Of a stretch of 64,000 bases of DNA, positions 134-54,187 are shown piece after piece. Source of the stretch: an uncultured Gammaproteobacteria bacterium (GTDB lineage Bacteria; Patescibacteriota; Patescibacteriia; UBA1558; 2-01-FULL-52-15); contig CAYOCJ010000001.1 of assembly GCA_964402565.1 (NCBI GenBank), forward strand, positions 352,079 to 416,078. The letters run 5' to 3'. Position 1 is the first letter of the stretch. Every line of letters begins with the position of its first letter. The notes beneath the pieces were generated by a model, which was not told the origin of the DNA, did not search any database, and saw only the letters and a program-made list of their open reading frames with translations. The position numbers were made by a program, and so were the translations under genes.

Positions 134-670
134 TTGATCATGACCTCATCAGAGCTGCGCCAGCTGTATATCATGCTGGGCGGCGTTGTCGCCGGCGTCC
201 TCGTGTATATGCTTCTGCGATATGCCAAGATTACCAATTTGTTTGAAGCCAAGAATTATCTGCTGGTCATTAGTTTTATACATATCATTACGTTCTGGCA
301 GGTAAGCGCTTTGGTATATTTTATGATGGTGCTTTTCGACGCCAAATTAATGCCTGGCGCTTTTTTGATAGCAGTATTGACCTACGTGCTCGGGCGCGGT
401 AGTATCTTCGATCACGGGCTGAAGAAGAGCTCCGGATGGCTGGTATTAGGAGTATTGGTGCTCACCACGACAGAGTTGAGCTTGTTGCTATCGCTCTTGC
501 CAGTGCACTACTATACGCTTGCGACTCTGCTCACGGTTTGGTTCTTTTTTGTTGTAGAAATGGTCATCGCAGGACAGGAAGTGTCGAGCCGAAAACGTTT
601 GTTTAGAAGCTATACAACTTTTTCATTGATCGTCATGGCGTTGCTTCTTCTTACGGCAACATGGCAATAA
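134..670 (+). CDS. hypothetical polytopic membrane protein
   Basis: ORF track. The sequence is strongly hydrophobic with several predicted TM helices. No catalytic motif was recognised. The true start may lie upstream of the window edge frame. Confidence 0.4.
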   Translation: MIMTSSELRQLYIMLGGVVAGVLVYMLLRYAKITNLFEAKNYLLVISFIHIITFWQVSALVYFMMVLFDAKLMPGAFLIAVLTYVLGRGSIFDHGLKKSSGWLVLGVLVLTTTELSLLLSLLPVHYYTLATLLTVWFFFVVEMVIAGQEVSSRKRLFRSYTTFSLIVMALLLLTATWQ

Positions 671-750
671 TCAACCTTTTTATGGATCAAACATCGTCAG
701 ACATGCAAAAACATTTTGAACGGCCGACGAGCCACAGCCAGGAATTTCCC

Positions 751-1809
751 ATGGTGAAACGTATCATTTTTCTGGTGCTTGTTGTTGCCATTGGCGTTAC
801 CACCGGAGCTCTGGGTTTCATTATCGCAAGCTCTCAATTGCCAATTGCATCGTATATCCCATACCCGTCGAATCTGAACTTCAACCAGCTGCAGCCGCAG
901 ACGACCGGCCGCGTGATTGCCGATGCCGCGGCCGTGGCTAAAGCACAGACTGTAACCATCATTCGATCCCGTATACGGACCAATGATGTATATGATCAAC
1001 AGATCGATCCAGCTGAGATCCTGGGCTCAGGTGTTGCCGCAACATCAGATGGCTGGGTCATGACAATGATACCAGCGGGACAGCTTACGAAAGTTTCGGT
1101 CATAGCGCGCGGCACCATATACGATGCTCAGCGCATATCAACTGACCCGATCACCGGCGTTTCATTCCTCAAGACTGATGTCCGTTTTTTTAACCCGGTG
1201 AATATCAGTGCCGGTGTGAGCGTGGGGGATTCGCTTGTACAAGATGGCGCATCAAATAATGCAGCAGAAAAAACTTCAGTTGCACGAGTTCTTGAGAACG
1301 CATATGCACCGGTGCATGCGAAACTCGACTATATTCGTTCGAGTGATTCGCTCAGCGAATATGTTTTGCTCGAATCGCTATCAGTGCCTTTGCAGGGGCA
1401 GGCATTCTTCACCAGCGATGGACGATTTGCCGGTTTTTCACAGGTAAAAAATAATGAATTGCTTTTGATCCCGGGCGGCATCATCAAACTTGCCTTGGAA
1501 CAGTCACTTCACCAGGAAGTTTCGCGTGATCTCGGGATTTCATACATGGTAACGTACCCAGCTGCTCAGGATGAGGATGCAGAAAGTATCATAGTATTTC
1601 ATCCAACTCGTAGCCCGATAAAACCAGGATCATTGGCAGCTAATGCGGGAATGAAAAAAGGAGATAGTATTCGATCTATAGGAGGCGACACAGTATCAAA
1701 GGTCGCTTCATTTGACTACCTGTGGAAAAAACACCAGCAGGATAGCGGAGGAGTTCAGTTGGTTATCGTTCGCAATGGGGTTGAAGGTCCATTATCAATT
1801 ACTTGGTAA
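751..1809 (+). CDS. membrane-anchored HtrA/DegP-like PDZ-domain protein (possibly catalytically degenerate)
   Basis: ORF 661..1809. The likely ATG is at 751 (MVKRIIFLVL, a TM anchor). Trypsin-fold blocks are present: ILGSGVAATSDGWV, DPITGVSFLKTD, SVGDSLV and FTSDGRF. A C-terminal PDZ-like block is GMKKGDSIRSIGGDTV. The canonical His of the TNnHV block is not evident. Confidence 0.5.
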   Translation: MVKRIIFLVLVVAIGVTTGALGFIIASSQLPIASYIPYPSNLNFNQLQPQTTGRVIADAAAVAKAQTVTIIRSRIRTNDVYDQQIDPAEILGSGVAATSDGWVMTMIPAGQLTKVSVIARGTIYDAQRISTDPITGVSFLKTDVRFFNPVNISAGVSVGDSLVQDGASNNAAEKTSVARVLENAYAPVHAKLDYIRSSDSLSEYVLLESLSVPLQGQAFFTSDGRFAGFSQVKNNELLLIPGGIIKLALEQSLHQEVSRDLGISYMVTYPAAQDEDAESIIVFHPTRSPIKPGSLAANAGMKKGDSIRSIGGDTVSKVASFDYLWKKHQQDSGGVQLVIVRNGVEGPLSITW

Positions 1810-2086
1810 TTGGATCATCTATTGAAGGCGGCCGAGGGCTGAATTTAGGCGCCTGAATTTGCCACTTATCCACAAACTGGCCAATACCGTCTTTTTCGAG
1901 TTTTGCTGCACGACGTTTGTTTTTTTGCGACCATGCGACAAGGCTTTCGAAATGGATCTTGTAACGGTTATTAACCACAATATATCGTAAGTCCTGAGAT
2001 TTGATAGCATCTCGGATCGTTTTGGTAGATACCCCGAAAAGTCGAGCTGCCTCAGAAACTGATACTCTTATTATGTTTTCACTCAT
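1799..2086 (-). CDS. HTH_17 / excisionase-family helix-turn-helix DNA-binding protein
   Basis: 95-aa ORF. An N-terminal HTH (VSEAARLFGVSTKTIRDAIK) is followed by a basic C-terminal tail. The gene is convergent with the upstream gene and overlaps it by 11 nt. A TATACT box lies 13 nt upstream of its ATG on the minus strand. Confidence 0.6.
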   Translation of the reverse strand: MSENIIRVSVSEAARLFGVSTKTIRDAIKSQDLRYIVVNNRYKIHFESLVAWSQKNKRRAAKLEKDGIGQFVDKWQIQAPKFSPRPPSIDDPITK

Positions 2087-2245
2087 GTTAATATTCTACA
2101 CTAGTATAGAGTTATTTTCAATTGTATTATTTGAAAGTGTATATTGGTGTAGAACCTTTATTGTTTTAAATAAATGCATCCTGACCGTTCAGGAAGTATA
2201 TATATTATCAGCTGTGTCTCAAATAACAGCTAAGTACTAAAATAC

Positions 2246-2274
2246 TTTACATTTAGCATCCTATTCTGTATAAT
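2246..2274 (+). promoter_or_regulatory. near-consensus sigma70-type promoter (TTTACA-17nt-TATAAT) directed toward the ECF sigma gene
   Basis: Read directly from sequence: TTTACA at 2246-2251, a 17-nt spacer, then TATAAT at 2269-2274. Confidence 0.5.
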
Positions 2275-2291
2275 ATCCCAACTGTTTAGAT

Positions 2292-2320
2292 AAACTTGTT
2301 TCGTGTGAAACGTCTTGTTT
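2292..2320 (+). promoter_or_regulatory. candidate ECF-type/autoregulatory promoter element (AAACTTGTT TCGTGTGAAAC GTCTTG)
   Basis: The 9-mer AAACTTGTT is followed by GTGTGAAAC. The same 9-mer plus GTGAGTGAAAT recurs at 4309-4335. AACTT resembles the -35 (GGAACTT) of RpoE-like ECF promoters. Confidence 0.3.
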
Positions 2321-2364
2321 CATAGAATAATGACAATTTGCTGAAAATATAGCTAATATTAGAG

Positions 2365-2385
2365 CCTAAGTACTTAGGTCTTTTT
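2365..2385 (+). promoter_or_regulatory. perfect 14-bp palindrome CCTAAGTACTTAGG followed by a TCTTTTT tract (leader attenuator/terminator-like or palindromic operator)
   Basis: Seen in sequence between the sigma70-like promoter and the sigma gene start. The stem is 5-7 bp and the T-run is on the + strand only. Confidence 0.35.
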
Positions 2386-2430
2386 CTATATTAGAGGTGT
2401 AACATTAGGCAGAAAATCGCGACTTACTAT

Positions 2431-2988
2431 ATGAAGGGCATTAAGGATACATTGAAAGAGAAGATTGCGCTTCTGCGTTTACGGCAGGGCGACACTGAAG
2501 CATTCGGCTTCATATACGATTCATATATTGAAAAGATATATCGATATATTTACTTTCGAGTCTCGGATACTGGGCTAGCACACGATATCTCACAGGAAGT
2601 ATTTATCCAGACATGGGAATATATCGTCAGCCAGAATACGATCGATAGTTTACAATCATTTCTGTACCGCGTTGCCTACCATAAGATTGTAGACCACTAT
2701 CGATCAAAAGAACGGCAAGCAGTATTGATCGATGACATCGCGGAGGATATCAAGGCACCGGAAACAGTGAGCAAGGAAATCGATCTGGTTTTTTTAAGAA
2801 AGAACATTGCCAAGCTGAAACAAGAGTATCAGGACGTATTGCTTCTCAGGCACGTTGAAGGACTTTCGATAGCTGAGATAGCAGACATTATAGAGAAAGA
2901 ATCAACGAATGTGCGCGTGCTGCTGCATCGAGCAACGGCAGCGCTGAAAGAGGCGTACGACAGTCCGCAGACCAACAATAAGCATTGA
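2431..2988 (+). CDS. RNA polymerase sigma-70 family ECF sigma factor
   Basis: 185 aa. Region 2 reads FIYDSYIEKIYRYIYFRV and region 4 reads LLLRHVEGLSIAEIADII..VRVLLHRATAALK, which is an HTH. The size is typical of ECF sigmas. Confidence 0.85.
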   Translation: MKGIKDTLKEKIALLRLRQGDTEAFGFIYDSYIEKIYRYIYFRVSDTGLAHDISQEVFIQTWEYIVSQNTIDSLQSFLYRVAYHKIVDHYRSKERQAVLIDDIAEDIKAPETVSKEIDLVFLRKNIAKLKQEYQDVLLLRHVEGLSIAEIADIIEKESTNVRVLLHRATAALKEAYDSPQTNNKH

Positions 2989-2989
2989 A

Positions 2990-4288
2990 ATGAATTTTAA
3001 TCAACACATCTCGAAGTTAAAGAAACTGCCAGAAGTTAATCTGGATAAGCAAAGCATTCTTTTGGGGAAGCATCAGTTGCTTGCTGAAATTAATAATCGC
3101 CAGGATTCCCGCGCTGGCGCTATTTTGACTTGGGCTGAGGCGTTCCGTTTTATGTGGCTTCGGATGCTGCGCAAGATCGTTCCGGCTGAGCGCGTTGTCA
3201 TTGCAGGTCTATTGGTCATTACACTTACGGTATCTTCGACCTATATGGCGCAAGCTGCAGTTCCTGGAGATATTCTCTGGCCACTGAAGCTGACCTATGA
3301 GAAAGCAGAGATCGCCTTAGCGACGGACGCAGCCTCAGAAGGGCGCATCCATATCCGGCATGCTGATAATCGCTTGAAAGAATTGACCGTCATAGCTGCC
3401 CGGCCGAATACCCCTGAGAAGAGCAAGAATATTTCTCAGCTGGTCCGGCGTTTAGAGAAAGATATTACTGCAGCAGACCAAAGTCTAAAGCTTACTAAGG
3501 AAGAAAAGAAAGACAGCGAGCCGCAGGTGATCATGGCTCTCGCACAGGATCTCAGCGACACCGCGTTGCAAGCGGCGACTGCTTTGAACGAAAATCATGA
3601 TCTCTTGGGAACAGATGCAGGGCAAGGATCAGAGCAAGGGCTTGCCGGGAGCGATGTCCTTGCAACAAGCACTGATGCGGCCGTGAGCACCGGAAGCCAG
3701 AATTCGTCCACGGTCCCGACCTCAACGGCGCTGTTAGACTCGACTGAGAATGAGAACGCAACTGCTGCAACCGAAGCAGCAAAAGTAGTTGCCGAAGTGC
3801 AGGCGGTCAATATTGAAGTTTCATACACGGCTCTGAGCGCTATGATCGAAGTGATCGAAGCTCCTGGGTCTGTCGTCAACCGTACCGAAGTTAATCGTCT
3901 CATGCAGCAGAAAGTCACCGGGCTTGCCAGCCGTCTGCCGGCATTGCAGGAGAAAATAGCGTTAGTTGACGACGATTATCTTCTGCATCGTAATGAGTTG
4001 AAATCACTATTGAAAAAAACGACTGAAGCATTAGGACTGGCAGGCGATTTGATCAAGCTCGATAACCTCAGCGGCTCATTTAAACAGACGCAGGATGCGA
4101 AAGATATGATGAGCAGCATGGATGAGCTGCTTGATGAGGTTGCAAGCGGCAATGGTTTTAATAAGCCAAAACCGAAAGTCGAACCACCAGCATTGCTCAA
4201 ACCAACGCCAGTAGGCCAGGTAAAGATCCAGAGCGTTGATGATCCAAATCAAGATGCAGCAGTGATAGATCCGGTCGTTACTGAATAG
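2990..4288 (+). CDS. DUF5667-like membrane protein, putative anti-sigma factor partner
   Basis: Its start is 1 nt after the sigma stop. A single TM helix (VVIAGLLVITLTV) is followed by PGDILWPLKLTYEKAEIAL, which is DUF5667-like, and a long coiled-coil-like extracytoplasmic region rich in A/E/K/T. Confidence 0.55.
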   Translation: MNFNQHISKLKKLPEVNLDKQSILLGKHQLLAEINNRQDSRAGAILTWAEAFRFMWLRMLRKIVPAERVVIAGLLVITLTVSSTYMAQAAVPGDILWPLKLTYEKAEIALATDAASEGRIHIRHADNRLKELTVIAARPNTPEKSKNISQLVRRLEKDITAADQSLKLTKEEKKDSEPQVIMALAQDLSDTALQAATALNENHDLLGTDAGQGSEQGLAGSDVLATSTDAAVSTGSQNSSTVPTSTALLDSTENENATAATEAAKVVAEVQAVNIEVSYTALSAMIEVIEAPGSVVNRTEVNRLMQQKVTGLASRLPALQEKIALVDDDYLLHRNELKSLLKKTTEALGLAGDLIKLDNLSGSFKQTQDAKDMMSSMDELLDEVASGNGFNKPKPKVEPPALLKPTPVGQVKIQSVDDPNQDAAVIDPVVTE

Positions 4289-4308
4289 CGTTATTTTCGT
4301 TTGTTAGA

Positions 4309-4335
4309 AAACTTGTTCTTTGTGAGTGAAATTAA
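4309..4335 (+). promoter_or_regulatory. second copy of AAACTTGTT..GTGAGTGAAAT motif (candidate ECF-dependent promoter of the surface-protein gene)
   Basis: AAACTTGTT is at 4309-4317, followed by CTTTGTGAGTGAAAT. It lies 20 nt after the anti-sigma-like stop codon. Confidence 0.3.
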
Positions 4336-4771
4336 TCAGCAGGTAAACGGGCACACCCATGCTTGCCGCAGTACTAGTTAAGGACGCGAAGCGCTGAAAT
4401 TCGCTTCGGCGATTTGCGCCCTTAACTAAATGTACTTTTAGACCCACGGTCTGAAGGAGCGTTTGGAAACGCTTATGCGCGCGTACATAAGGGGAACGTT
4501 TACTTTCCTTTGCACAGTGTACACTGGCAAAGGGTCTAACTCGCGTTCATTGCGAAACTATCGTCCAGAACGCTGAAGTGTCGCTCCATTAGGTTGTGTC
4601 CCCGACATTACGTCGGGGGTGTCAGCAAGGTCGACTCCGTAACAACGGAGGGCCGCAATACTAATGAACCTCTGCATACAAGCAGAGCCACGCTGTGCCT
4701 ATCGGCATAGGGCGGAGGGTGTACTTTAGTGGGATCGTAGGCGCAATCGAACGACTAAGAAAAAGAACTAA
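4336..4771 (+). ncRNA. long ORF-free, hairpin-dense region: candidate structured 5' leader or novel cis-regulatory/non-coding RNA preceding the giant surface-protein gene
   Basis: No ORF of at least 60 aa in any frame across about 480 nt. At least 8 clean hairpins are visible. Examples are AGUUAAGG..CCUUAACU enclosing GCGAAGCG..CGCUUCG, CCCCGAC-AUUA-CGUCGGGG, CUCCGUAACAACGGAG, CUCUGCAUACAAGCAGAG, GCCUAUCGGCAUAGGG, AGCGUUUGGAAACGCU and CAGUGUACACUG. Confidence 0.4.
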
Positions 4772-7700
4772 ATGAATCTACTCAAGAAAGTTTCATTGAG
4801 CGCATTGATGTTCGTAACAGTGTTCAGCATTGGCGGTTTTGGCTCTGTCAAAATGGCTCATGCAGCGACTCTCATGGCGGGTGATCTCGTCAAGGGACCG
4901 AATTCGGACGCTGTCTACTACATTGACGGCACGATGAAGCACGTATTCCCTGACAAGGGAACGTACATGACGTGGTACAGCAATTTCGATGCAGTGAAAA
5001 AAGTAACTGTAGCGGACTTGGACATGTACTCAACTGGTTCTGCAGTAGCATACCGCCCAGGTACCTATCTGGTGAAAACACCGGACAGTGCTTTCGTGTA
5101 TGCAGTCGAACCAGGCGGCAAGTTGCGCAAGATCCCATCTGAGAGCGTAGCAATGGCTCTCTATGGCTCTAGCTGGGCAAAATGGATCCGGGATATTCAT
5201 CCTCTGACCATGAGCACCACCTATGCCGTGACTTCCAATGATATGACCGCTGCCGCTCCTTCAGTCGGCACGGTCTTACAGAAGACTGGTGATTCAACCA
5301 TCTACTACTTTGATGGTACGAATATCCGTCCGTTTGCATCCTCAGCAGCATTTGATGCGAATAACCTGAACTGGGACTACGTGGTCAAGGTTTCATCCTT
5401 GGGCACCTGGACCGTCGGTTCTTCAATCACTGGCGCTGAGACCTTTGCAACGATTTCAGGTGTTGGTACAAGCGTCGTCACCGGTCCTGCCGGTAATTTG
5501 ACGGTAGCTTTGTCACCAAACACTCCAGCTGCGAATGGTATTCTCCTTGGTGGCGCTGCACGCGTTCCAATGACGACCGTTCGTTTGACCGCCGGCAGCA
5601 CCCCGGTGATCATCGATTCTTTGACGATCGAGCGAAAGGGTGTTGCAAGTGATTCTGAATTCGCAAGCTTTGATTTGCTCGATGGTAACACCATGTTGCC
5701 GTTGAATGATTCAAGCAAGTCTTTGAACTCGAATCACCAGGCTGTGTTCAATGATGACATCACCGTTCCTGCGAATGCATCGTGGGATGTGATCGTCTCA
5801 GCAAACATGGCTGCTGATCTTTCTGCTGTCGCTGGCGAATACCCAGTGATCTCAGTTGCAGGTATGGTCTTGAAGAACAATTCAACCATGTCAGGCACTT
5901 TGCCGATCATGGGTAATGTCTTCTTGTCGAACGGTACTATTACCGTCGGTACCGCAACTATTGCTTCAGGTTCAAACAACCCATCAGCAGTAACCAAGCA
6001 GGTTGGTCAGAAAGATTACATCGTTACGTCCATCAAGGTTACCAATAATTCGAGTGCTACTGGTCAGAACATGACTTTGAAGTCTGTGACCTTCACGAAC
6101 AATGGTTCTACGTCACCAACTGACGTTGCAAACCTGCGCTTGGTGAACTCGAATACGGGTGTTACCTTGGGAACTATGGCAACGGTAACTGGCGACAAGG
6201 TCAGCTTCACGAATTTGAACCTTCCAATCTTGAAGGGTAACAATGTGAACCTCGATCTTAAGCTTGATATCGTTGGCGGTTCTGGTCGTACTATCGATTA
6301 TGATGTCCAGAAGCAGGGAGATGTCGTCGTCTTCGACGAACTCCGTGGCTACAACGTCTTACCGACCTATCCAAATTCTTCAGAGCCATACTTCAACGCA
6401 GCAGCAGCTACGGTGGATAATGGCCATCTCCGCATTGAGTCTGTAGCAGTTGCTACTCAGACCATTCAGGAGAACAAGAACGGCGTTTTGATCGGTAAGT
6501 TCAAGTTCGTCGTCGAAGGTGAGCCGATCAACATTACTCGCCTTCCGATCAAGACTATCTTGAACACTTCAACGGCTGGTGCGAATATCACTGATATTAC
6601 CAACATCACCTTGAAGGATCCGGCTGGAATGGCTGTTGTTTCAGGACAGGATCCGACTTCAAATGGTTGGAGTGCAAACTCGAACTCAGATCAGGTCGGT
6701 ACTGCAACGACAACTGACACCTTCACTGCTCCTATCGGTGAAACCGTGTATTCTGTCTACGCAGACTTGTCTAGCGACTTCAGTGCGAACGACACGATCC
6801 AGACTCAGATCAACCCGGCAATGGTAATTGCAAAGGGTGATACGACTGGCGATACCTTGACGAACTCAACCGACATCACTCCGACTGTTGACGTAACTGG
6901 TTCAACCATGACCGTCAAATCAGTCGACTTGAATGTTTCTGTTTCTTCTTCACCAGCTGCTCAGACCTTGGTCGCGGGCGCTTCTGAAGTCGAAGTCGCA
7001 GACATCGTTCTCGACGCAGCAACTTCAGGCTCTGATGTTCGTGTGACTCAGTTCAAGATCCCGGTCAAGACGACTGCCCCGGTATTCCCGGACATCGTCA
7101 CGAGCTTCAAGATCTATGTTGGCGGAGTGCAAGTTCCAGTTGATTCAACTTCAACTTCGTACTCAACCGCAGGCTCAACCGCAGGCGGCAACGCTACCAC
7201 CACTTTGACCATCGCAACTGGCAATCTCACTATTCCAGCACTTCAGTCCAAGACCGTAGTGATCAAGGCGAATATTGGAACTGGTGCGACCAGCGGCTCA
7301 TTCAAAGTCGGTTCACAGGTTGATTCGATCACCGCAATTGACTCTGAAGGCCAGACCTTCACCCCAGATTACACACCAAATGACGGTCAATCGATGACCT
7401 TGTCAGGCGGCGGTATCTTGAACATCTCGAATGCAACTGATCCTCGCGCAGGCATGGTTGTCGGTAACACAACGACTGTTGTCGGCCAGTTCACCGCTCA
7501 GGCGAAGAACGACACGATCAAGTTGAATTCATTCGGATTCACGATCCAGGCACCTGATCAGGGTCGCCAGGGCACAACTATCGCAGACCAGTTGAATGGT
7601 CTCGAAGTTTGGGAACTGGGCGGCGGATCAGCCTTGGGCACCGCTTTGGTGACAGGAAATAACGCAACCGTTACTCCTTCATCACCGATTAGCTTGTCCA

Positions 7701-8530
7701 TCAACTCGTCGAAGACCTACGTGGTCAAGGCGAACTGGAAGCTTATTGACCACTTGACCTCACCAGCAGTATCTGGCGGCGGTCTCAAGGTCAATATGAC
7801 CAACGTTGATACGACAGGTCAGGCAGCTGGTTCTTCAACGGTAACGTTGAACGGAAACGGCACAGCCTTCAATACTCAGAGCTCGTTCTTGTCGACTCCG
7901 ACCGTAACGTTGGATTCTGCATCGAACACGATCTCGGGTTCTGGTGTCTTTGATCTCTTCAAGTTCCACATCACGCCAAGCGCAGGCGGTCCAGTCGGTA
8001 TTGCCAAGCTCAGCTTCGGCATCACGACTTCGACGGTCAGCGTTGCGGGTGGCGGATTCCAGCTCTATCAGTCTGATTCATCAGGCTCACAGGGTAACTT
8101 GATCTCAGGTAATACTGACTTCAAGTCTATCTTCGCTGGAACTGCTGGTTCAAAGTCACTTGTTGCTGAAGCTCGTATGGATAACTCCGATACGAACAGC
8201 TACAACACGACTGACTCTGGTGAGAACTTCTACTTCTCTGGTACGAAGTACTTCACCTTGCGCGGTACGATCTCAGGTCACACTGGATCCAGTACTGACA
8301 GCGAAAGCGTCGCAACGGTCCTTGCTGGTGATGCAGCATATGCCAGCTCGAGCCTTGTGAACTATGCAGCAGTCGACGGAACAGACACTGGATTGGATGA
8401 CTTCATCTGGTCCGATCTGAACTTTGACCTTAACTCAACAACTGCTACGCAGAACTTGGGTTGGTTCAATGGATTCCGTGTACCGGGCTTGGATAACAAC
8501 TCAACGACTGCAGAAACGATCAGTGGTTAA
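4772..8530 (+). CDS. giant secreted Thr/Ser/Gly/Asn-rich cell-surface protein (S-layer/adhesin-like) with N-terminal tandem repeats
   Basis: 1252 aa. The signal peptide is MNLLKKVSLSALMFVTVFSIGGFGSVKMAHA. Repeated units include VYYIDGTMKHVFP, VYAVEPGGKLRKIPS and IYYFDGTNIRPFAS. No Cys is apparent. Numerous NxS/T sequons are present, and the long beta-rich T/S/G stretches are typical of Ig-like surface arrays. Confidence 0.7.
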   Translation: MNLLKKVSLSALMFVTVFSIGGFGSVKMAHAATLMAGDLVKGPNSDAVYYIDGTMKHVFPDKGTYMTWYSNFDAVKKVTVADLDMYSTGSAVAYRPGTYLVKTPDSAFVYAVEPGGKLRKIPSESVAMALYGSSWAKWIRDIHPLTMSTTYAVTSNDMTAAAPSVGTVLQKTGDSTIYYFDGTNIRPFASSAAFDANNLNWDYVVKVSSLGTWTVGSSITGAETFATISGVGTSVVTGPAGNLTVALSPNTPAANGILLGGAARVPMTTVRLTAGSTPVIIDSLTIERKGVASDSEFASFDLLDGNTMLPLNDSSKSLNSNHQAVFNDDITVPANASWDVIVSANMAADLSAVAGEYPVISVAGMVLKNNSTMSGTLPIMGNVFLSNGTITVGTATIASGSNNPSAVTKQVGQKDYIVTSIKVTNNSSATGQNMTLKSVTFTNNGSTSPTDVANLRLVNSNTGVTLGTMATVTGDKVSFTNLNLPILKGNNVNLDLKLDIVGGSGRTIDYDVQKQGDVVVFDELRGYNVLPTYPNSSEPYFNAAAATVDNGHLRIESVAVATQTIQENKNGVLIGKFKFVVEGEPINITRLPIKTILNTSTAGANITDITNITLKDPAGMAVVSGQDPTSNGWSANSNSDQVGTATTTDTFTAPIGETVYSVYADLSSDFSANDTIQTQINPAMVIAKGDTTGDTLTNSTDITPTVDVTGSTMTVKSVDLNVSVSSSPAAQTLVAGASEVEVADIVLDAATSGSDVRVTQFKIPVKTTAPVFPDIVTSFKIYVGGVQVPVDSTSTSYSTAGSTAGGNATTTLTIATGNLTIPALQSKTVVIKANIGTGATSGSFKVGSQVDSITAIDSEGQTFTPDYTPNDGQSMTLSGGGILNISNATDPRAGMVVGNTTTVVGQFTAQAKNDTIKLNSFGFTIQAPDQGRQGTTIADQLNGLEVWELGGGSALGTALVTGNNATVTPSSPISLSINSSKTYVVKANWKLIDHLTSPAVSGGGLKVNMTNVDTTGQAAGSSTVTLNGNGTAFNTQSSFLSTPTVTLDSASNTISGSGVFDLFKFHITPSAGGPVGIAKLSFGITTSTVSVAGGGFQLYQSDSSGSQGNLISGNTDFKSIFAGTAGSKSLVAEARMDNSDTNSYNTTDSGENFYFSGTKYFTLRGTISGHTGSSTDSESVATVLAGDAAYASSSLVNYAAVDGTDTGLDDFIWSDLNFDLNSTTATQNLGWFNGFRVPGLDNNSTTAETISG

Positions 8531-8574: not shown

Positions 8575-8612
8575 TCCCTCCCTCGTTTATTCGGGGGAGG
8601 GACTGTTATTTG
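8575..8612 (+). terminator. rho-independent terminator of the surface-protein gene
   Basis: The stem is TCCCTCCC (8575-8582) paired with GGGAGGGA (8595-8602), the loop is TCGTTTATTCGG, and a CTGTTATTTG U-rich tail follows. Confidence 0.6.
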
Positions 8613-8685: not shown

Positions 8686-9477
8686 ATGAAAACGTATCGG
8701 AAGGTATTGTTGATCGTCATTCTCCTATTACTCGCAGCCGCAGCTGCGCGTTTTTGGTATTCGCGGCAGGGTTCGTCTCCAGCACAAAAAACCGATCAGC
8801 AAGCGCATATTACTGAAGTTGTCAAACAAATGCAGACATTGGAATTCAAAAAAACTGATATCCCCAACGATCAGAAAAAGCTAATTACTGATGGATTTGC
8901 AAGCGAGGTCAAAAAACTTATTAGTGCAGCAAAACTCCTTGATACAAACCGGGATGCGGCTTATGCGAATTTATTCTGGCCATTAAATGATATCGGCGCA
9001 TTCAACCGCCAGACAGGTGACTATGGGAAAGCCGAGCTTGCATTTCAGACAGCGCATGAGCTCGTGCCATCTGCCTATGTGCCATTAGGCAATTTGGGTG
9101 ACCTGTACTCAGATGCAGCCTCGCCGTTGCTCAATGATACCAAGGCAGCAGAGAGCTATGAGCAGGCCCTGGCAGCAATCGGCGCTGACCAAAAAGGGGC
9201 AGATGCCGGGATCTATGACACGTACCTGGAAACGTACTATAATGATCTGTATGTGATCTATCGATTCCGTTTTAATGATCCTGCAAAAGCTGAGAAGTTT
9301 TTGATCGATGGCGTAAAGAAATTCCCCAAAGTTTTGAATATCCTTGCTTATCTTGCTCTGTACTACCGCGATACCAATCAGATCGACAAAGCGATCTCGC
9401 GGTACCATGAATTACTGGTCAAAGATCCGAAGAGCATCGCAGCGCAAGAAGCTTTGCAGCAATTAGAAGCTAAGTAA
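8686..9477 (+). CDS. membrane-anchored TPR-like helical-repeat protein
   Basis: An N-terminal TM anchor (VLLIVILLLLAAAAA) is followed by helical-repeat, TPR-like sequence. It is 7 nt upstream of the O-antigen-ligase/TPR gene. Confidence 0.45.
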   Translation: MKTYRKVLLIVILLLLAAAAARFWYSRQGSSPAQKTDQQAHITEVVKQMQTLEFKKTDIPNDQKKLITDGFASEVKKLISAAKLLDTNRDAAYANLFWPLNDIGAFNRQTGDYGKAELAFQTAHELVPSAYVPLGNLGDLYSDAASPLLNDTKAAESYEQALAAIGADQKGADAGIYDTYLETYYNDLYVIYRFRFNDPAKAEKFLIDGVKKFPKVLNILAYLALYYRDTNQIDKAISRYHELLVKDPKSIAAQEALQQLEAK

Positions 9478-9484
9478 CATCACC

Positions 9485-11971
9485 ATGAGATCAATGAATA
9501 GTTTCCTGAAACAGCCGATCAATACCTGGATCATCCGAGTGATCAGTTTTTTGGCGATTGTCTTGACGCTTGTTCCGATGGTGACTTTTTCTAATATCTA
9601 TTTCCCCTATATTGTACCGCGCAACGATTTTTTCAGGATCGTCGTCGCGCTCATGTTCGTACTCTATACGGTTTTAGTGATGCGCGACCGTAGCTATTTG
9701 CCGAAACGCGGATTGCCGCTGTATCTGCTTCTCGGGTTCCTTGCGTCAATGACGCTGTCGAGCCTTTTCGGCTCGGAGCCCTTGTATAGTTTCACGAGCA
9801 ATTTCGAGCGCATGGACGGGCTGGTGACGGTATATACGCTGGCGCTATTTTTCATCGTGGTGATCAGTGTATTCAAGTCCAGGGATCAGATTGAGCGTAT
9901 TTTGTGGGCCAGCCTGTTCGTAGCGTATATGACTGCGGTCATCGGCATCAGCCAGATCGTCGGCGTCAACTTACTCCAAAGTTCGTCAGGAGGAGAGCGT
10001 ATTACCGCGACTTTAGGCAATGCAACGTATCTGTCAGCGTACTTGCTGATCCACCTCTTTATAGCTTGTTATGCATTTATCCGTTCTCCGCGCGGCATTT
10101 TGACAAAGATGTTCATGTGGTTTTCTTTATTGCTTGATATCGTTTTGGTAGTGATCCATTTCCGATACGGCAGTCCCGATGGCCATGGAGGCATCTGGAA
10201 TCAGGTTTTTGGCGATCCACTTGTCGCGCTGTCATTCTGCATCATCCAGCTCCTAGCAGTGTTTCCCTTATTCTTCAAGGATAGATTCAGCATGCAGCTT
10301 CGCATCGATAAGTTCATCCCGGCCCTGCTGCTGTGCATGTTCGTACTTTTGATGATCAATACGCAGACTCGCGGTGCCATTATCGGTTTAGCCTTTGGCG
10401 CATTCGCGGTTCTTGTCGGTGGTTTCGCGAGCAAGCAATTTTCGAGGACAGCGCGTCTGGTCTGCGCAGGTTTTTTGCTTGCAGGCATTATCGGCGTCGG
10501 CGGCATTTTTATTTTTAAAGACAGCGCACTGATAAAATCCACTCCGGTTTTCCAAAAAATCAGCTCTATTTCATTTACTGATGCTACGACCCGTTCGCGT
10601 TTGGCGACATGGCATTCAGCGATCGAAGGCTTTGCAGAACGACCTGTCTTTGGATGGGGAGTGGAGAATTTCCAGGAACTTTTCAATAAACATTTTCCGA
10701 CCGAGATCTATACTGACGAAGGTACGCCGCTTTGGTTCGACAGGCCGCATAATTTGCTTTTGCAGTATCTTGCAGAAGGCGGAGTCATAGGCATCGGCCT
10801 CTATCTCGCATTTCTCATAACCTTGATCATTGCTTCGTTCAAAAAGCTTCCGCGCAAGGAGGCGCTCTTCCTGCTCGGATTCATTGTTGCGTATATCGGG
10901 CAGAATGTATTCGTTTTCGACAGCATTAATAGTTATTTGCCGTTGTATATCGTGCTTGCCTTCAGCTATGCGTCGATCTATGTTTATTCCGCCCAAGCGG
11001 TTGATGCCGAGAAAAAAGCTCTCGTGCCCAGGGTCGGAGGTGCTGCAGTGGTCATTGTCGTGGGCGCGGTCCTTTGGATGGGTTTGTGGTATACCGTTTT
11101 TTGGCCGTTGTCGGTCAATAAGGAATTTGTATCATATTATTTTGCGCAGACAAGCTCACAGACGCCAGGATATAAACCTGAGATCACGAAGAAAGTCTTT
11201 GACCTTATCGATCACAGCCCCTATCTAGGCCGAGCTGAGTTGTTGGGTGTGTATTCTGAATTTGCGGTGAGCCGCTTCCGAGATGATAATCCAAACGGTG
11301 ACGATATGAAATTTCTGGCCTCAGGACTCGAGGAGCGGTTCGATCGGGAGCGCGCACAGGGTTATACGAAAGATGCCCGTTTCAATATGTTTGAGCTGAA
11401 CTTGCTCCTGAACGCAGGGCAATTTGATCCGATATTTTACGAAAAGGCCCTCGCGCTCAGCAATGAAAGTATTCCATTAAGCCCTGATCGTCCGCAATTC
11501 TATTATATTCGCGGCAGGGTCTATATGAACATGAAGCAATATGATAAAGGTATTGCTGATTTCAAGCATGCGGTTGAGCTTGCACCGTTGATCCCTGAAG
11601 CGCATTCGAATTTGTTCGCGGCCTATGCGACCATGGGCGATAAGGATCATGCGCGTACTGAGCTCATGGAATTAAGCAAATTGATGCCATTTGATGCAAA
11701 AGCGATCGCGCATGCGACGAGCGTCTATGTAGCAGCGGGTCTCTATGATGAGGCAGTCAATCTATTGCAGGAAGCAATAGTAGAATTCCCGAGCGAGGAA
11801 GCGCAGTTCCATGTCGGTCTAGCGCAGGTATATGCCGCATCAGGTGATGCAAAGACGGCCAGAAAAGAAATGGAAACAGCGGTAAAACTTGATCCAAGTA
11901 TCGCTCAGTATACCGAAGACTTCTATAAAAAGCTGGACGCAGGCGAGCTTACGCGGAAGAAGGCTCAGTAG
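9485..11971 (+). CDS. O-antigen ligase/polymerase-like (Wzy_C) polytopic membrane protein fused to C-terminal TPR repeats
   Basis: 828 aa. More than 10 TM helices and a Wzy_C signature (WFDRPHNLLLQYLAEGGVIGIGLYLAFL). C-terminal TPR units are present, for example YYIRGRVYMNMKQYDKGIADFKHAVELAP. Confidence 0.7.
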   Translation: MRSMNSFLKQPINTWIIRVISFLAIVLTLVPMVTFSNIYFPYIVPRNDFFRIVVALMFVLYTVLVMRDRSYLPKRGLPLYLLLGFLASMTLSSLFGSEPLYSFTSNFERMDGLVTVYTLALFFIVVISVFKSRDQIERILWASLFVAYMTAVIGISQIVGVNLLQSSSGGERITATLGNATYLSAYLLIHLFIACYAFIRSPRGILTKMFMWFSLLLDIVLVVIHFRYGSPDGHGGIWNQVFGDPLVALSFCIIQLLAVFPLFFKDRFSMQLRIDKFIPALLLCMFVLLMINTQTRGAIIGLAFGAFAVLVGGFASKQFSRTARLVCAGFLLAGIIGVGGIFIFKDSALIKSTPVFQKISSISFTDATTRSRLATWHSAIEGFAERPVFGWGVENFQELFNKHFPTEIYTDEGTPLWFDRPHNLLLQYLAEGGVIGIGLYLAFLITLIIASFKKLPRKEALFLLGFIVAYIGQNVFVFDSINSYLPLYIVLAFSYASIYVYSAQAVDAEKKALVPRVGGAAVVIVVGAVLWMGLWYTVFWPLSVNKEFVSYYFAQTSSQTPGYKPEITKKVFDLIDHSPYLGRAELLGVYSEFAVSRFRDDNPNGDDMKFLASGLEERFDRERAQGYTKDARFNMFELNLLLNAGQFDPIFYEKALALSNESIPLSPDRPQFYYIRGRVYMNMKQYDKGIADFKHAVELAPLIPEAHSNLFAAYATMGDKDHARTELMELSKLMPFDAKAIAHATSVYVAAGLYDEAVNLLQEAIVEFPSEEAQFHVGLAQVYAASGDAKTARKEMETAVKLDPSIAQYTEDFYKKLDAGELTRKKAQ

Positions 11972-14392: not shown

Positions 14393-15426
14393 AATTACTC
14401 ATGATCACGCGGAAGGTGGATCGAAATGATTCCCTGGCAGGGTTTACCTATACATGGGTGAAGGCTTTTGCTGAGCTTGTTGCCGAGCTTCATGTGATAT
14501 GCCTGGAAAAAGGGGATACAACAGGCTTGCCTGAGAACTGCAACATTTACTCTCTGGGCAAGGAGCTAAAGAAAGATCGCTGGTCAGAGTTCGTTTTGTT
14601 CCATAGGTATGCCAAGCGCATCGTCCCGAATGTGGACGCTATCTTTTCTCATCAAAACCCTGAGTATGGTATTTTGATCGCTCCATGGGCAAAAGCATAC
14701 AAAAAAAAGCTCATTGCGTGGTATACACATCGGGCCGTTACCTGGCGCTTGCGGCTAATGACTGCGCTCTGCACTACGGTCGTAACGGCATCAAAAGAAA
14801 GCTTTCGGCTGCCAACAAAAAAGTTGAAAGTCCTCTCGCATGGCATTGATACTGATCATTTCGTATCTGTACCGCAGAGTAGCTCTACTGCAAAAAGGCT
14901 GCTCTCTGTCAGCAGGCTGTCGCCTTCGAAGCATATAGAGATGATGATAAGCCTTCTTCCTGCATTGTCTGAGCATATGAAGGAAAAAATACAATTACGC
15001 ATTGTCGCGACGCCTGCACGGCCGGGTGACCATGCATATGCAGAAAAACTGCGAAAACAGGTTTCGGATATGAAGCTAGAACAATATGTCCAATTCATCA
15101 CTTCAGTCCCGTATACTGACTTGCCGCAGGAATACGCACAGGCAGATCTTTTTTTGAATTTTTCGGATACCGGGAGTCTTGATAAAGCGGTCCTTGAAGC
15201 GCTGTCATGCGGCATTCCTGTGCTCACGACAAATATTGCTTTTAAGGAAATATGCGAGCAACTCGATCCGCGGATGTTCACTGAAAACAGCGCTGAGCAG
15301 ATAGGCGCTCATGCCAAGGATTTATTGGTGAATCATTCGGTCCGACCTGAACTGCTCAGGCAGTACGTAATTGACGAGCATAGCCTTCATCATTTGATCA
15401 AAAAGATATTGGCGCTCTATGTCTGA
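14389..15426 (+). CDS. GT4-family glycosyltransferase
   Basis: The ATG at 14389 overlaps the upstream stop (ATGA). Motif LEALSCGIPVLTTNIAFKEI. Confidence 0.65.
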   Translation: MKLLMITRKVDRNDSLAGFTYTWVKAFAELVAELHVICLEKGDTTGLPENCNIYSLGKELKKDRWSEFVLFHRYAKRIVPNVDAIFSHQNPEYGILIAPWAKAYKKKLIAWYTHRAVTWRLRLMTALCTTVVTASKESFRLPTKKLKVLSHGIDTDHFVSVPQSSSTAKRLLSVSRLSPSKHIEMMISLLPALSEHMKEKIQLRIVATPARPGDHAYAEKLRKQVSDMKLEQYVQFITSVPYTDLPQEYAQADLFLNFSDTGSLDKAVLEALSCGIPVLTTNIAFKEICEQLDPRMFTENSAEQIGAHAKDLLVNHSVRPELLRQYVIDEHSLHHLIKKILALYV

Positions 15427-21904: not shown

Positions 21905-21911
21905 CAACGCT

Positions 21912-24508: not shown

Positions 24509-24518
24509 TATTGTCCGT

Positions 24519-42165: not shown

Positions 42166-42194
42166 TTGCTTTGTAAGATATTTTTTTGTATACT
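42166..42194 (+). promoter_or_regulatory. sigma70-like promoter TTGCTT-17nt-TATACT
   Basis: TTGCTT at 42166-42171, a 17-nt spacer, then TATACT at 42189-42194. It precedes the ATG at 42216. Confidence 0.45.
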
Positions 42195-42215
42195 ATCTGC
42201 ACTATACAGACTGAC

Positions 42216-54102: not shown

Positions 54103-54187
54103 AGGTCGTGTACCCTATACTAGCATACCTTTTTTTCGAAAACCATATACATTTTTTGGTATACTATTATATGGAGCACACCGACCT
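54103..54187. promoter_or_regulatory. divergent promoter region between two polytopic membrane-protein genes with two TATACT boxes
   Basis: Sequence ctatactagcatacc.....tggtatactattatatgg. TGgTATACT fits an extended -10 on the + strand. Confidence 0.35.

Follow-up and report, generated by a model that had tools for sequence, protein, structure and literature searches.

The gene at positions 4772–8530 (plus strand) of the window, the whole 64,000-nucleotide stretch of DNA that was analyzed, probably encodes the principal S-layer protein of a Komeilibacteria-type Patescibacterium. An S-layer role is well supported by the domain architecture, the swapping of anchors among homologs, a published predicted family, an extreme codon bias and the monocistronic arrangement of the gene behind a structured leader. 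The source of the DNA is an ultra-small bacterium of the Patescibacteria (CPR), and an S-layer prediction for the protein family has already appeared in a preprint, as far as its accessible part goes (10.1101/2024.05.28.596244). New here are an undescribed wall anchor, a likely glycosylation locus beside the gene and a conserved, strongly folded RNA leader.

Domain Architecture of the Surface Protein

The 1252-amino-acid product is secreted, acidic, all-beta and free of Cys (computed pI 4.55, mature mass 126 kDa; 12.8% Thr, 11.1% Ser, 9.7% Gly). An earlier sequence-only reading had correctly noted the lack of Cys and had called the protein giant; at 126 kDa it is large rather than giant. Its sole hydrophobic segment is a Sec-type signal peptide (positions 4772–4864, plus strand, residues 1–31) that consists of MNLLKK, a hydrophobic core and AHA followed by Ala, with the predicted cut after AHA. 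The protein contains no lipobox Cys, LPXTG motif, C-terminal transmembrane segment or SLH motif.

Residues 33–226 form three homologous repeats of ~65 amino acids, R1 (4868–5047, residues 33–92), R2 (5051–5245, residues 94–158) and R3 (5255–5449, residues 162–226), all on the plus strand and delimited by hhalign, HMM boundaries and AF2. Profile–profile alignment with hhalign supports homology at 97% for R1–R3 (E 2.6e-11) and at about 75% for R1–R2 and R2–R3 (E ~2.5e-5), and each repeat is modeled as strand-strand-strand-helix-strand-helix (AF2, pLDDT 96.5, pTM 0.89), so that the three related N-terminal units reported earlier are real and homologous. The triple repeat has no sequence match in Pfam, NCBIfam or the PDB. 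The best PDB fold matches of the anchor model are EccB repeat domains (Foldseek, E 2.8e-4, prob 0.97) at low TM-scores of 0.23–0.25; PlyCB is not among the top Foldseek matches, and the EccB repeat fold has been likened to the PlyCB wall-binding fold (PMC4769845). Wall binding by the EccB repeats is itself a proposal. EccB (ESX type VII secretion) shows no sequence-level kinship to the anchor, which lacks a Pfam T7SS_ESX1_EccB match, and it combines four repeats with a core domain, whereas the candidate anchor has three units and the phage lysin subunit PlyCB forms a ring of single units.

The repeat anchor is present in 108 of 188 family sequences, and the remainder carry a coiled coil with PG_binding_1, SLH or a related repeat instead. 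The same module was found fused to Peptidase_M23 and cupredoxin domains in other proteins. The swaps and fusions together indicate that the triple repeat is a portable envelope anchor, and the wall-anchoring N-terminus suggested earlier is well supported. Aromatic residues make up 12.7% of the anchor, compared with 4–6% of domains D1–D5.

Beyond the anchor, the body consists of six homologous Ig-like domains of ~160 amino acids that the sequence-only reading had missed (between-domain homology 94–99%, hhalign). The beta-sandwich domains D1 (5483–5950, residues 238–393), D2 (5951–6421, residues 394–550), D3 (6422–6925, residues 551–718), D4 (6926–7411, residues 719–880) and D5 (7412–7891, residues 881–1040) were delimited by hhalign, HMM boundaries and AF2, and D6 (7892–8527, residues 1041–1252) by hhalign and HMM boundaries, all on the plus strand. 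The body is all-beta in the AF2 model (pLDDT 90.6), in line with the beta-rich remainder proposed before. D6 is longer than D1–D5 and holds the conserved C-terminal motif of the family, DDFIWSD...W.NGFRVPGL, as well as a nearly invariant W985 (body numbering). A fold search with the body returned generic Ig-like arrays (PrgB, integrins, alpha-2-macroglobulin, antigen I/II) and no solved S-layer proteins.

At E <= 1e-3 the family has 1018 representative proteins, and at E <= 1e-30 it has 230; almost all of them match colinearly across the entire body. The family median is two Cys. Six domains and a length of ~1100–1300 amino acids are fixed in >200 divergent representatives. Every member that bears an organism name belongs to the Patescibacteria, and body-profile matches of the same size include proteins of Kaiserbacteria, Lloydbacteria, Parcubacteria and Peregrinibacteria, among others.

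Gene Neighborhood and Expression

Synteny was compared across 10 repeat-anchored loci (nine with DNA and the P0011 gene table). The conserved upstream block begins with a PDZ-domain protease-like gene (661–1809, plus strand; Pfam PDZ_2/PDZ_6), whose orthologs are HtrA/DegS-like, those in the same position with an added Trypsin_2 domain, and whose position is kept in L001, L002, L003, L005, L006, L007, L132 and L133. It is followed by an ECF-type sigma factor gene (2431–2988, plus strand; Pfam Sigma70_r2 and Sigma70_r4_2), which precedes the surface-protein gene in all 10 loci, and by a gene for a DUF5667 membrane protein and putative anti-sigma factor (2990–4288, plus strand; Pfam DUF5667) that starts 2 nt past the sigma gene stop. 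The DUF5667 protein has one transmembrane segment (residues 63–87) preceded by about 60 cytoplasmic residues; its gene was called upstream of the surface-protein gene in nine of the 10 loci (exception L003), and in Ca. Yanofskyibacterium it also adjoins the SLP-like gene, which is highly expressed.

Codon bias in the surface-protein gene far exceeds that of the other window genes (ENC 43.2 versus 53.6 +/- 2.6 for 44 other genes; no GGG among 122 Gly codons), which suggests that the gene is highly expressed. A terminator-like hairpin with an 11-bp stem (8 GC pairs), recognized by consensus match, lies 3' of the stop codon (8575–8602, plus strand). Codon bias and long structured 5' UTRs have been described for S-layer genes (PMC3666127).

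A candidate 5' leader RNA occupies the long, highly structured intergenic region between the DUF5667 gene and the surface-protein gene (4289–4771, plus strand). The segment 4330–4771 has an MFE of -184 kcal/mol (z -8.4), and the folding z-scores of nine orthologous intergenic regions range from -5 to -12, compared with -1.2 +/- 1.5 for controls. The leader region has no Rfam match, and the orthologous regions share conserved sequence blocks. Block A (4470–4503, plus strand; CGCTTATGCGCGCGTACATAAGGGGAACGTTTAC) contains a CTTATG/CATAAG hairpin with a CGCGCG loop followed by GGGAACGTTTAC; it is clear in seven orthologous leaders (in diverged form in L132) and recurs in L067. Block B (4616–4661, plus strand) consists of CAGCAAGGTCGA and a covarying hairpin, H2 (4635–4650), closed by GGUC/GGCC. 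It matches the covariance model R1 with 52 bits; an independent match in L067 sits 67 nt ahead of another ortholog. H2 is 100% paired with compensatory changes at six of six pairs; this covariation and the extreme folding z-scores argue for selection on RNA structure.

The Downstream Glycan Locus

The glycosyltransferase locus that had been placed near the gene begins 155 nt past its stop codon and runs to about 59.3 kb. Its first gene encodes a membrane-anchored TPR protein in a WsaA-like position (8686–9477, plus strand; Pfam TPR, N-terminal transmembrane segment). In all 10 repeat-anchored loci and in the PG_binding_1 variant L008, the surface-protein gene has a gene of ~230–290 amino acids downstream, which is its direct neighbor in eight of the 10; some of these genes have a faint or no TPR match. 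The following gene encodes a Wzy_C membrane protein with C-terminal TPR (9485–11971, plus strand; Pfam Wzy_C 7e-20 and TPR) of the O-antigen ligase/O-oligosaccharyltransferase family, a putative S-layer O-oligosaccharyltransferase. The only PDB sequence relative of its membrane part is annotated "Oligosaccharyltransferase" (9rmk, E 1.3e-6), and its architecture equals that described for WsfB/PglL (PMC2943079). Eight of the 10 loci have a Wzy_C gene no more than about 5 kb downstream (exceptions L003 and L007, the latter with a PMT-type GT-C in its place), and in L008, the single PG_binding_1 variant examined, the distance is 6 kb.

The envelope-glycan locus proper spans about 47 kb (11949–59324, mixed strands; Pfam and NCBIfam scans) and encodes some twenty GT4/GT2 glycosyltransferases and seven SAM methyltransferases. 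The GtrB-like, GT-C and YfhO-like enzymes named earlier were recovered as a GtrB/ArnC/PgfS-like GT2 (19995–20969), two PMT_2 GT-C enzymes (17070–18767 and 54080–55786) and a YfhO-like protein (25257–27662). Also present are a Wzx-type flippase (31493–32839), an asparagine-synthase-like protein (34735–36765), a Bac_transf initiating transferase (38604–40007, minus strand), a second Wzy_C (40077–42164), and RmlD (37869–38600, minus strand), RmlC (56672–57163), RmlB (57600–58604) and RmlA (58608–59324). No gene of the pyruvyltransferase type was observed in the window.

Proposed Mechanism

The surface protein would be made from a monocistronic, highly expressed mRNA with a structured 5' leader of roughly 300–480 nt, and the neighboring conserved ECF sigma, DUF5667 anti-sigma and PDZ-protease module may control its expression. 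The precursor would pass through Sec and lose residues 1–31. The three EccB-repeat/PlyCB-like units are predicted to fold into one compact N-terminal module that would bind peptidoglycan or a secondary wall polymer and so hold the protein non-covalently at the cell wall, and domains D1–D6 would form the lattice. The TPR protein, the Wzy_C+TPR enzyme and the roughly 47-kb locus probably attach a rhamnose-containing, methylated glycan to Ser/Thr; judged from gene context, transfer would occur en bloc at the external face of the membrane, as with WsaB/WsfB in Geobacillus and Paenibacillus.

Alternative Interpretations

The sequence-only reading had proposed an S-layer glycoprotein with dense NxS/T sequons; its S-layer part with a wall-anchoring N-terminus holds up well, and the glycoprotein part draws on gene context. 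The sequon excess itself is real (32 versus 20 +/- 3.7 after both global and local shuffling, z about 3), and the reversed motif, found 16 times (z -1), is not enriched. The excess is still poor evidence of glycosylation, as it is weak across the family (mean z 0.7 in 86 homologs). N-glycosylation at these sites, as in the S-layer proteins of archaea or the PglB substrates of Campylobacter, is highly improbable: no STT3/PglB/AglB-type family matched among the roughly 55 window ORFs scanned, the bacterial D/E-x-N-x-S/T form is limited to three sequons, and beta-rich proteins also commonly use Asn-x-Ser/Thr in turns. O-glycosylation on Ser/Thr is plausible since the TPR and Wzy_C+TPR genes, rmlABCD and Bac_transf mirror the slg clusters discussed below. 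The locus could instead, or also, build a wall polymer bound by the anchor. That it makes a rhamnose-containing, methylated secondary cell-wall polymer as the anchor ligand and leaves the protein unglycosylated, with the Wzy_C enzymes as polymerases or ligases for the polymer (compare SLH/pyruvylated SCWP and CWB2/PSII), is quite possible, if short of probable. Wzx, Wzy_C and Bac_transf make up the classical Wzy-type polysaccharide route, YfhO and GtrB-like enzymes are known from teichoic-acid glycosylation, and PlyCB, a distant fold relative of the anchor, binds the wall carbohydrate polyrhamnose. The glycan genes are absent from the SLH-anchored variant locus L004, and SCWP synthesis genes co-distribute with anchor type (10.1101/2025.04.02.646754). 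However, the PG_binding_1-anchored L008 also has TPR and Wzy_C-TPR genes, which, in this one locus, thus go with the body and not with the anchor; a TPR-bearing Wzy_C beside an S-layer gene is a protein O-OTase signature (PMC2943079), and the closest solved relative of Wzy_C carries the oligosaccharyltransferase annotation given above. One role does not preclude the other.

A wall-anchored adhesin or host-attachment fiber, in which the Ig-like domains form a stalk and not a self-assembling lattice, would fit the largely episymbiotic life of the Patescibacteria and the best structural matches of the body (PrgB, antigen I/II C123 and integrin legs). Homologs of the predicted S-layer family rank in the top five of signal-peptide genes by expression, and related highly expressed PGBD and Ig-like proteins were interpreted by the authors as host-adhesion factors (PMC10936435). 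An adhesin is nevertheless quite unlikely: the fixed domain number and length suit a geometric lattice unit better, repeat number in stalks usually varies, the codon bias is extreme, the protein has no recognizable tip or ligand-binding domain, and AF-multimer models of the family form p6 lattices in the accessible part of the preprint (10.1101/2024.05.28.596244). It is also unlikely, if slightly less so, that 4289–4771 is no leader of the gene but a stand-alone non-coding RNA or a regulatory element at the DNA level (e.g., an ECF promoter with operators). The candidate leader could be a separate RNA; GGGAAC in block A resembles an ECF -35 element, and a search upstream of the structured region found no sigma-70-like promoter. 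Against this stand the signs of selection on RNA structure, the absence of a GGAAC-N14-19-CGT promoter-like match from the structured region, and its constant position on the strand of the gene, directly 5' of the same gene.

Comparison with Known and Predicted S-Layer Systems

The S-layer protein proposed here shares its signal peptide, six tandem Ig-like domains, size, N-terminal anchor and phylum-wide spread with the family predicted in the preprint (10.1101/2024.05.28.596244), whose accessible part describes six Ig-like domains, 1131–1274 amino acids, a predicted p6 lattice and numerous members across Patescibacteria classes, e.g., Nealsonbacteria A0A1G2EN61, Doudnabacteria A0A1F5NRV7 and Kaiserbacteria A0A0G1WWP5. 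The match is one of architecture, size and lineage and not of shared accessions, and the triple EccB/PlyCB-like anchor, the sigma/anti-sigma synteny, the O-OTase-like genes and the leader RNA are not described in that part. The same source notes a "striking resemblance" of the predicted family to Haloferax volcanii csg: six Ig-like domains, a left-handed spiral and p6 hexagonal pyramids. The csg protein is a glycoprotein that carries a lipid anchor at the C-terminus and receives its N-glycans from AglB, whereas the surface protein has an N-terminal, predicted non-covalent anchor and a C-terminal domain as predicted apex, and the window yielded no N-OST.

The Bacillaceae proteins SbsB, Sap and EA1 combine a Sec signal, an N-terminal wall anchor of three motifs and about six beta-sandwich lattice domains, and SLH-anchored S-layer proteins of this family are acidic with few or no Cys. 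Logic and layout are the same as in the surface protein, but the anchor is SLH and there is no sequence or top-ranked structural similarity. The slg clusters of SgsE, SpaA and SgtA (Geobacillus stearothermophilus, Paenibacillus alvei and G. tepidamans; PMC2943079) share a monocistronic S-layer gene beside a glycan cluster, a Wzy_C O-OTase that either comes after a small TPR protein (WsaA/WsaB) or bears a C-terminal TPR domain itself (WsfB), rmlABCD, a WsaP-like Bac_transf, methyltransferases and an asparagine-synthase homolog (wsfA). Glycan export in the slg clusters follows a Wzm/Wzt ABC-transporter route, whereas a Wzx flippase and a second Wzy_C are found instead in the window, where export is apparently of the Wzx/Wzy type. 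At about 47 kb, the window locus is far larger than the slg clusters and adds a branch of GtrB-like and GT-C (PMT_2, YfhO) enzymes.

The Surface Protein and Its Homologs

The open reading frame at 4772-8530 on the forward strand encodes a surface protein of 1252 aa that lacks cysteine and is rich in threonine (12.8%), serine (11.1%), and glycine (9.7%), with a mature mass of 126 kDa and a pI of 4.55. A signal peptide is predicted at the N-terminus (MNLLKK, a hydrophobic core and AHA↓A), residues 7-26 being the sole hydrophobic segment, and inspection of the sequence revealed neither a lipobox nor a sortase motif nor an anchor at the C-terminus. The whole protein had no matches in Pfam, NCBIfam, or PDB-sequence searches, and its domains are absent from every other ORF of the window. 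The body consists of six tandem copies of a single beta-sandwich domain of ~160 aa (D1, residues 238-393; D2, 394-550; D3, 551-718; D4, 719-880; D5, 881-1040; D6, 1041-1252) that align pairwise with hhalign probabilities of 94-99%. Structure prediction, proposed in the sequence-only reading, gave an all-beta AF2 model of the body (pLDDT 90.6), which together with the absence of cysteine bears out the beta-rich, Cys-free remainder described there. The PDB neighbors of the body in a fold search are generic Ig-like arrays (PrgB, integrin legs, alpha-2-macroglobulin, antigen I/II), and this search cannot discriminate an S-layer protein from an adhesin.

Homologs of the surface protein form a family of about 1100-1600-aa proteins, and all members with an organism name are Patescibacteria (including Komeilibacteria, Kerfeldbacteria, Uhrbacteria, Buchananbacteria, Azambacteria, Lloydbacteria, Kaiserbacteria, Peregrinibacteria, and others). 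A phmmer search of 1.84 billion representatives returned 1018 matches at E ≤ 1e-3, 629 at E ≤ 1e-10, and 230 at E ≤ 1e-30, nearly all of them colinear across the full 1024-aa body with an N-terminal extension of 150-270 aa ahead of it. A profile of the body retrieved same-sized proteins of Kaiserbacteria, Lloydbacteria, and Parcubacteria as well as many same-sized proteins bearing PG_binding_1. A locus search with the surface protein alone yielded two metagenome loci, and an identical sequence was found on a 633-kb contig.

A new family of Patescibacteria S-layer proteins, obtained by genome scanning, is described in the supplement of a preprint (bioRxiv 10.1101/2024.05.28.596244). As described there, the proteins are 1131-1274 aa long, carry an N-terminal signal peptide and six Ig-like domains arranged as a left-handed spiral, are predicted to form a p6 two-dimensional lattice, and have many homologs across the Patescibacteria classes, with homologs among the five most expressed signal-peptide genes of a study of three Paceibacteria (PMC10936435). 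The latter study reports extracellular proteins that are strongly expressed and carry a peptidoglycan-binding domain at the N-terminus, and others with Ig-like folds. Compared by description, the signal peptide, the six Ig-like domains, and the 1252-aa length of the surface protein agree with these descriptors, so that a look for homologs annotated as S-layer proteins, as the sequence-only reading suggested, leads to a same-descriptor family that the preprint predicts to form S-layers. Five accessions that the preprint lists as members (A0A1G2EN61, A0A1F5NRV7, A0A0G1WWP5, A0A1F4NSF7, and GMX59286.1) were absent from 20 cluster look-ups, and because there is no accession-level link to the preprint's list, we infer membership in its family from matching descriptors rather than accessions.

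A Probable Portable Envelope Anchor

The body is preceded by three repeats (R1-R3). With profiles built from 36 homologs, R1 (residues 33-92) aligned with R3 (162-226) at an hhalign probability of 97% (E = 2.6e-11), and the R1-R2 and R2-R3 pairs reached ~75% (E ~2.5e-5). In the AF2 model of residues 33-228 (pLDDT 96.5, pTM 0.89) each unit has the same strand-strand-strand-helix-strand-helix order. The three related N-terminal units claimed from the sequence are real repeats by both measures, and the high pTM suggests that they pack into one compact body, which would be analogous to the three-motif anchors SLH and CWB2.

Pfam matched no known enzymatic or other domain in the repeats, including T7SS_ESX1_EccB and, at E ≤ 1, SLH (PF00395), and a search of the anchor profile against PDB sequences recovered neither EccB nor PlyCB. 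A match to designed beta-propellers in the same search was dismissed as spurious (17 residues only). Two or three anchor repeats are present in 108 of 188 family sequences; the remaining sequences place a coiled coil with PG_binding_1, SLH (present in homologs P0088, P0224, and P0233), or a related GD-x-IK...VYIV...KR repeat before the same six-domain body. A search with the module profile identified other Patescibacteria proteins in which the anchor is joined with Peptidase_M23 or with cupredoxin domains. Aromatic residues make up 12.7% of the anchor versus 4-6% of D1-D5, and aromatic enrichment is usual on carbohydrate-binding surfaces. Because the N-terminal module is swapped with PG_binding_1 or SLH, shuffled onto M23 and cupredoxin proteins, and rich in aromatic residues, it is, as judged from sequence, a portable envelope anchor, and the wall-anchoring reading of the repeats fits this swapping. 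A bipartite architecture of an anchor and an Ig array, together with anchor swapping, is general in bacterial S-layer proteins (10.1101/2025.04.02.646754). Given its fusions to M23 and cupredoxin domains, the triple-repeat module might be used to recognize wall-associated proteins by sequence in Patescibacteria genomes. The fourth anchor type (in P0040, P0150-P0154, P0165, P0202, P0204, and P0220), which likewise precedes the six-domain body, consists of repeats of the form GD-x-IK..D..VYIVK..G.KKFKRLILNP.VFNSYGHL.W and is probably distantly related to the triple repeat.

Conserved Neighborhood and a Candidate Leader RNA

Gene tables were compared for ten loci, at 28-64% protein identity, whose surface proteins carry the triple-repeat anchor (L001, L002, L003, L005, L006, L007, L131, L132, L133, and the locus of P0011, the last as a gene table without DNA). 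The common order is PDZ protease, ECF sigma factor, DUF5667 protein, a gap of 250-670 nt, the surface-protein gene, a gene for a small TPR protein, a Wzy_C-TPR gene (TPR domain C-terminal), and GT4 glycosyltransferases, and it is kept in full in most of the ten loci. Upstream of the surface-protein gene, the sigma gene is found in 10/10 loci and the DUF5667 and protease genes in 9/10 each. In the window, the HtrA/DegS-like PDZ protease, the ECF sigma factor, and the single-pass membrane DUF5667 protein occupy 661-4288 on the forward strand, in synteny with loci including L001, L002, L005, L006, L007, L131, L132, and L133. Among the departures from this order, neither a DUF5667 nor a Wzy_C gene is called in L003, L005 has two other genes before the TPR gene, and L007 has a PMT-type GT-C in place of Wzy_C. 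In orthologous loci the protease gene is sometimes followed by an HTH_17 (excisionase/MerR-like) gene, and a small ORF (1850-2095, reverse strand) lies at this position in the window, between the protease and sigma genes. An SLH-anchored variant (L004) is without the PDZ/sigma/DUF5667 set and the glycan context, and in a PG_binding_1 variant (L008) the TPR gene is retained and Wzy_C-TPR lies 6 kb downstream, with no sigma pair. The DUF5667 protein has the predicted topology of an anti-sigma factor, and the arrangement resembles the sigmaE/RseA/DegS envelope-stress circuit, by analogy with which the three genes may control the S-layer gene. A highly expressed 692-aa secreted protein of Ca. Yanofskyibacterium also adjoins a DUF5667 gene (PMX_810_sub_00350/PMX_810_sub_00351, PMC10936435 supplement), and the preprint (10.1101/2024.05.28.596244) gives this protein as a three-Ig-domain S-layer protein.

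The DUF5667 gene is separated from the start codon by a 483-nt region (4289-4771, forward strand) with a minimum free energy of -184 kcal/mol (z = -8.4 versus shuffles). All eight orthologous upstream regions gave z-scores of -5 to -12, and those of the PG_binding_1, SLH, and Uhrbacteria variants gave -8.3, -4.6, and -4.5, versus -1.2 +/- 1.5 (minimum -4.2) in 23 control windows. The orthologous regions lie at 8710-9169 in L001, 9574-10000 in L002, 7384-8000 in L005, 7335-8000 in L006, 5566-6000 in L131, 5536-6000 in L132, 5608-6000 in L133, and about 600-893 in L067. Within a putative leader of roughly 300-480 nt, two blocks are near-invariant, block A at 4470-4503 and block B at 4616-4661 (CAGCAAGGTCGA at 4623-4634); the invariant parts read CGCGCG...GGGAACGUUUAC and CAGCAAGGUCGA.

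A covariance model of block B and the adjoining hairpin H2 (4635-4650), also called R1 and spanning 47 positions, was run over 893 kb, 80 unrelated genome loci among them, and retrieved the five training loci, L005, and L067, where the match stops 67 nt before the gene of another ortholog, of 1232 aa; rearranged versions in L131, L006, and L007 were missed. Compensatory changes are found at 6/6 pairs of H2, counts that are inflated by an alignment fitted to the model, and MAFFT with RNAalifold on whole leaders recovered only a mini-hairpin and H2. A long-range helix apparently covaries by eye (CATTAG/CTAATG in the window, CATTCG/CGGATG in L001, CATTG/CAATG in L132). A genome-wide DNA scan for the block A pattern GCGCGCG-N3-10-GGGAACGTTT gave at least 120 matches, mostly GC-rich chance occurrences, with one, L067, at a true ortholog locus. 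L067 (CAYYYA010000023.1, 621-4592), which holds the leader blocks and the 1232-aa ortholog, is binned as "uncultured Gammaproteobacteria bacterium" and is probably a mis-binned Patescibacteria contig. The region had no match in Rfam 15 at E ≤ 1, no ECF promoter pattern (GGAAC-N14-19-CGT) was found near the surface-protein gene, and a sigma-70 scan found no promoter in 4200-4771.

The region is a candidate structured 5' leader that would stabilize or regulate the S-layer mRNA, and a candidate for a new family of leader or cis-regulatory RNAs; if confirmed, this family would be linked with the envelope gene of highest expression. The effective number of codons, a proxy for expression, is 43.2 for the surface-protein gene versus 53.6 +/- 2.6 for 44 other genes of the window (minimum 48.6), GGG is used for none of 122 glycine codons, and there is a strong preference for AAC and TTG. 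S-layer genes with biased codons and long stabilizing 5' UTRs are documented (PMC3666127). Codon bias and the structured leader, taken as proxies, independently suggest very high expression, and the S-layer assignment made in the sequence-only reading is well supported by codon bias, anchor swapping, the six-Ig architecture, and the match to the descriptors of the preprint family.

The Glycan Locus and Possible Glycosylation of the Surface Protein

A very large glycan locus fills 8.7-59.3 kb of the window. Its presence had been recognized from the sequence, where it was placed a few kb from the surface-protein gene; it begins only 155 nt past the stop codon, with the TPR gene (8686-9477) and the Wzy_C-TPR gene (9485-11971). 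The locus contains some twenty GT4/GT2 enzymes, a Wzx-type flippase (31493-32839), a second Wzy_C, RmlA, RmlB, RmlC, and RmlD, and the initiating phosphoglycosyl transferase Bac_transf. The GtrB-like, GT-C, and YfhO-like enzymes named earlier were all recovered, as an ArnC/GtrB/PgfS-like polyprenyl-phosphate glycosyltransferase, two PMT_2 proteins, and a YfhO-like protein. An asparagine-synthase-like protein (GATase_7/GATase_6; 34735-36765, forward strand) lies among the glycosyltransferases and parallels wsfA of the Paenibacillus alvei S-layer glycosylation (slg) cluster (PMC2943079). Methyltransferases are unusually many, with six to seven SAM-dependent genes (15419-16105, 21041-21904, 21867-22685, 24474-25250, 27589-28566, 32849-33460, and a methyltransferase-like region in neighboring ORFs), which hints at a heavily O-methylated glycan. 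Three ORFs without a Pfam or NCBIfam match (22703-24508, forward, 601 aa; 29429-31486, forward, 685 aa; 51946-54102, reverse, 718 aa) may be novel membrane glycosyltransferases or polymerases. Two further genes, which interrupt or flank the locus, encode probable envelope proteins, a subtilase (Peptidase_S8) with FG-GAP repeats (42186-44261, forward strand) and a protein that combines a PEGA domain with a beta-propeller-like C-terminus (59326-60630, reverse strand).

The dense NxS/T sequons had been cited as a sign of glycosylation, and the excess is real in this copy (32 versus 20 +/- 3.7 after global shuffling or local shuffling in 30-residue stretches, with the reversed motif not enriched). 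Among 86 homologs the mean z is 0.7 and the median cysteine count is 2, so both the sequon excess and the absence of cysteine belong to this copy and not to the family, and the sequons are dropped as an argument. N-glycosylation as the main reading is unlikely given this weak family signal, the lack of an STT3 match among the scanned ORFs of the window, and the presence of only three extended D/E-x-N-x-S/T sequons. O-glycosylation of the Ser/Thr-rich body by enzymes of the locus is a reasonable inference from gene context, because the locus parallels the slg clusters and the membrane part of the Wzy_C-TPR protein has as its single PDB sequence relative an "Oligosaccharyltransferase" (9rmk, E = 1.3e-6); the second Wzy_C has no PDB sequence relative. 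The same genes could instead build a secondary wall polymer bound by the anchor, and both roles are possible together.

Comparison with Known Systems

An S-layer role is not in itself new, as it was proposed at the family level in the preprint (10.1101/2024.05.28.596244). New as far as found are the anchor type, the conserved neighborhood of sigma factor, putative anti-sigma factor, protease, and O-oligosaccharyltransferase-like genes, and the candidate leader RNA. A broader proposal, which we consider doubtful, is that the locus is a self-contained, Patescibacteria-specific S-layer module with three undescribed parts: a new class of anchor, of three EccB/PlyCB-like units, that would recognize a methylated wall glycan containing rhamnose and synthesized by the neighboring locus, a dedicated PDZ-protease/ECF sigma/DUF5667 circuit that would sense S-layer or envelope status and drive the gene, and a new large structured leader RNA that would control either the stability of the cells' most abundant mRNA or its translation.

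The Patescibacteria (CPR) account for a large part of bacterial diversity, although most have not been cultured. They rely on contacts between their cell surface and their hosts, and their envelope is known mainly through cryo-EM images. The assignment of an S-layer gene in Komeilibacteria, with its wall anchor, probable dedicated O-glycosylation machinery, and regulatory neighborhood, provides targets for metaproteomics and cryo-ET fitting, for labeling with antibodies or lectins, and for phage-receptor studies.

A close parallel to the glycan locus is found in the slg clusters of Geobacillus and Paenibacillus (PMC2943079), where a monocistronic S-layer gene adjoins the cluster in some species, the small TPR protein WsaA precedes the O-oligosaccharyltransferase WsaB, WsaB and WsfB carry a Wzy_C domain, and WsfB, like PglL, ends in a TPR motif; these clusters further feature WsaP as the initiating enzyme, methyl capping, rmlABCD, and wsfA, a homolog of asparagine synthase. 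The window differs in having no ABC-transporter family (Wzm/Wzt) among the scanned ORFs and a Wzx-type flippase with a second Wzy_C instead. As far as genes alone can indicate, it shares with the slg clusters the TPR and Wzy_C-TPR genes next to the S-layer gene, rmlABCD, and an initiating enzyme of the Bac_transf family.
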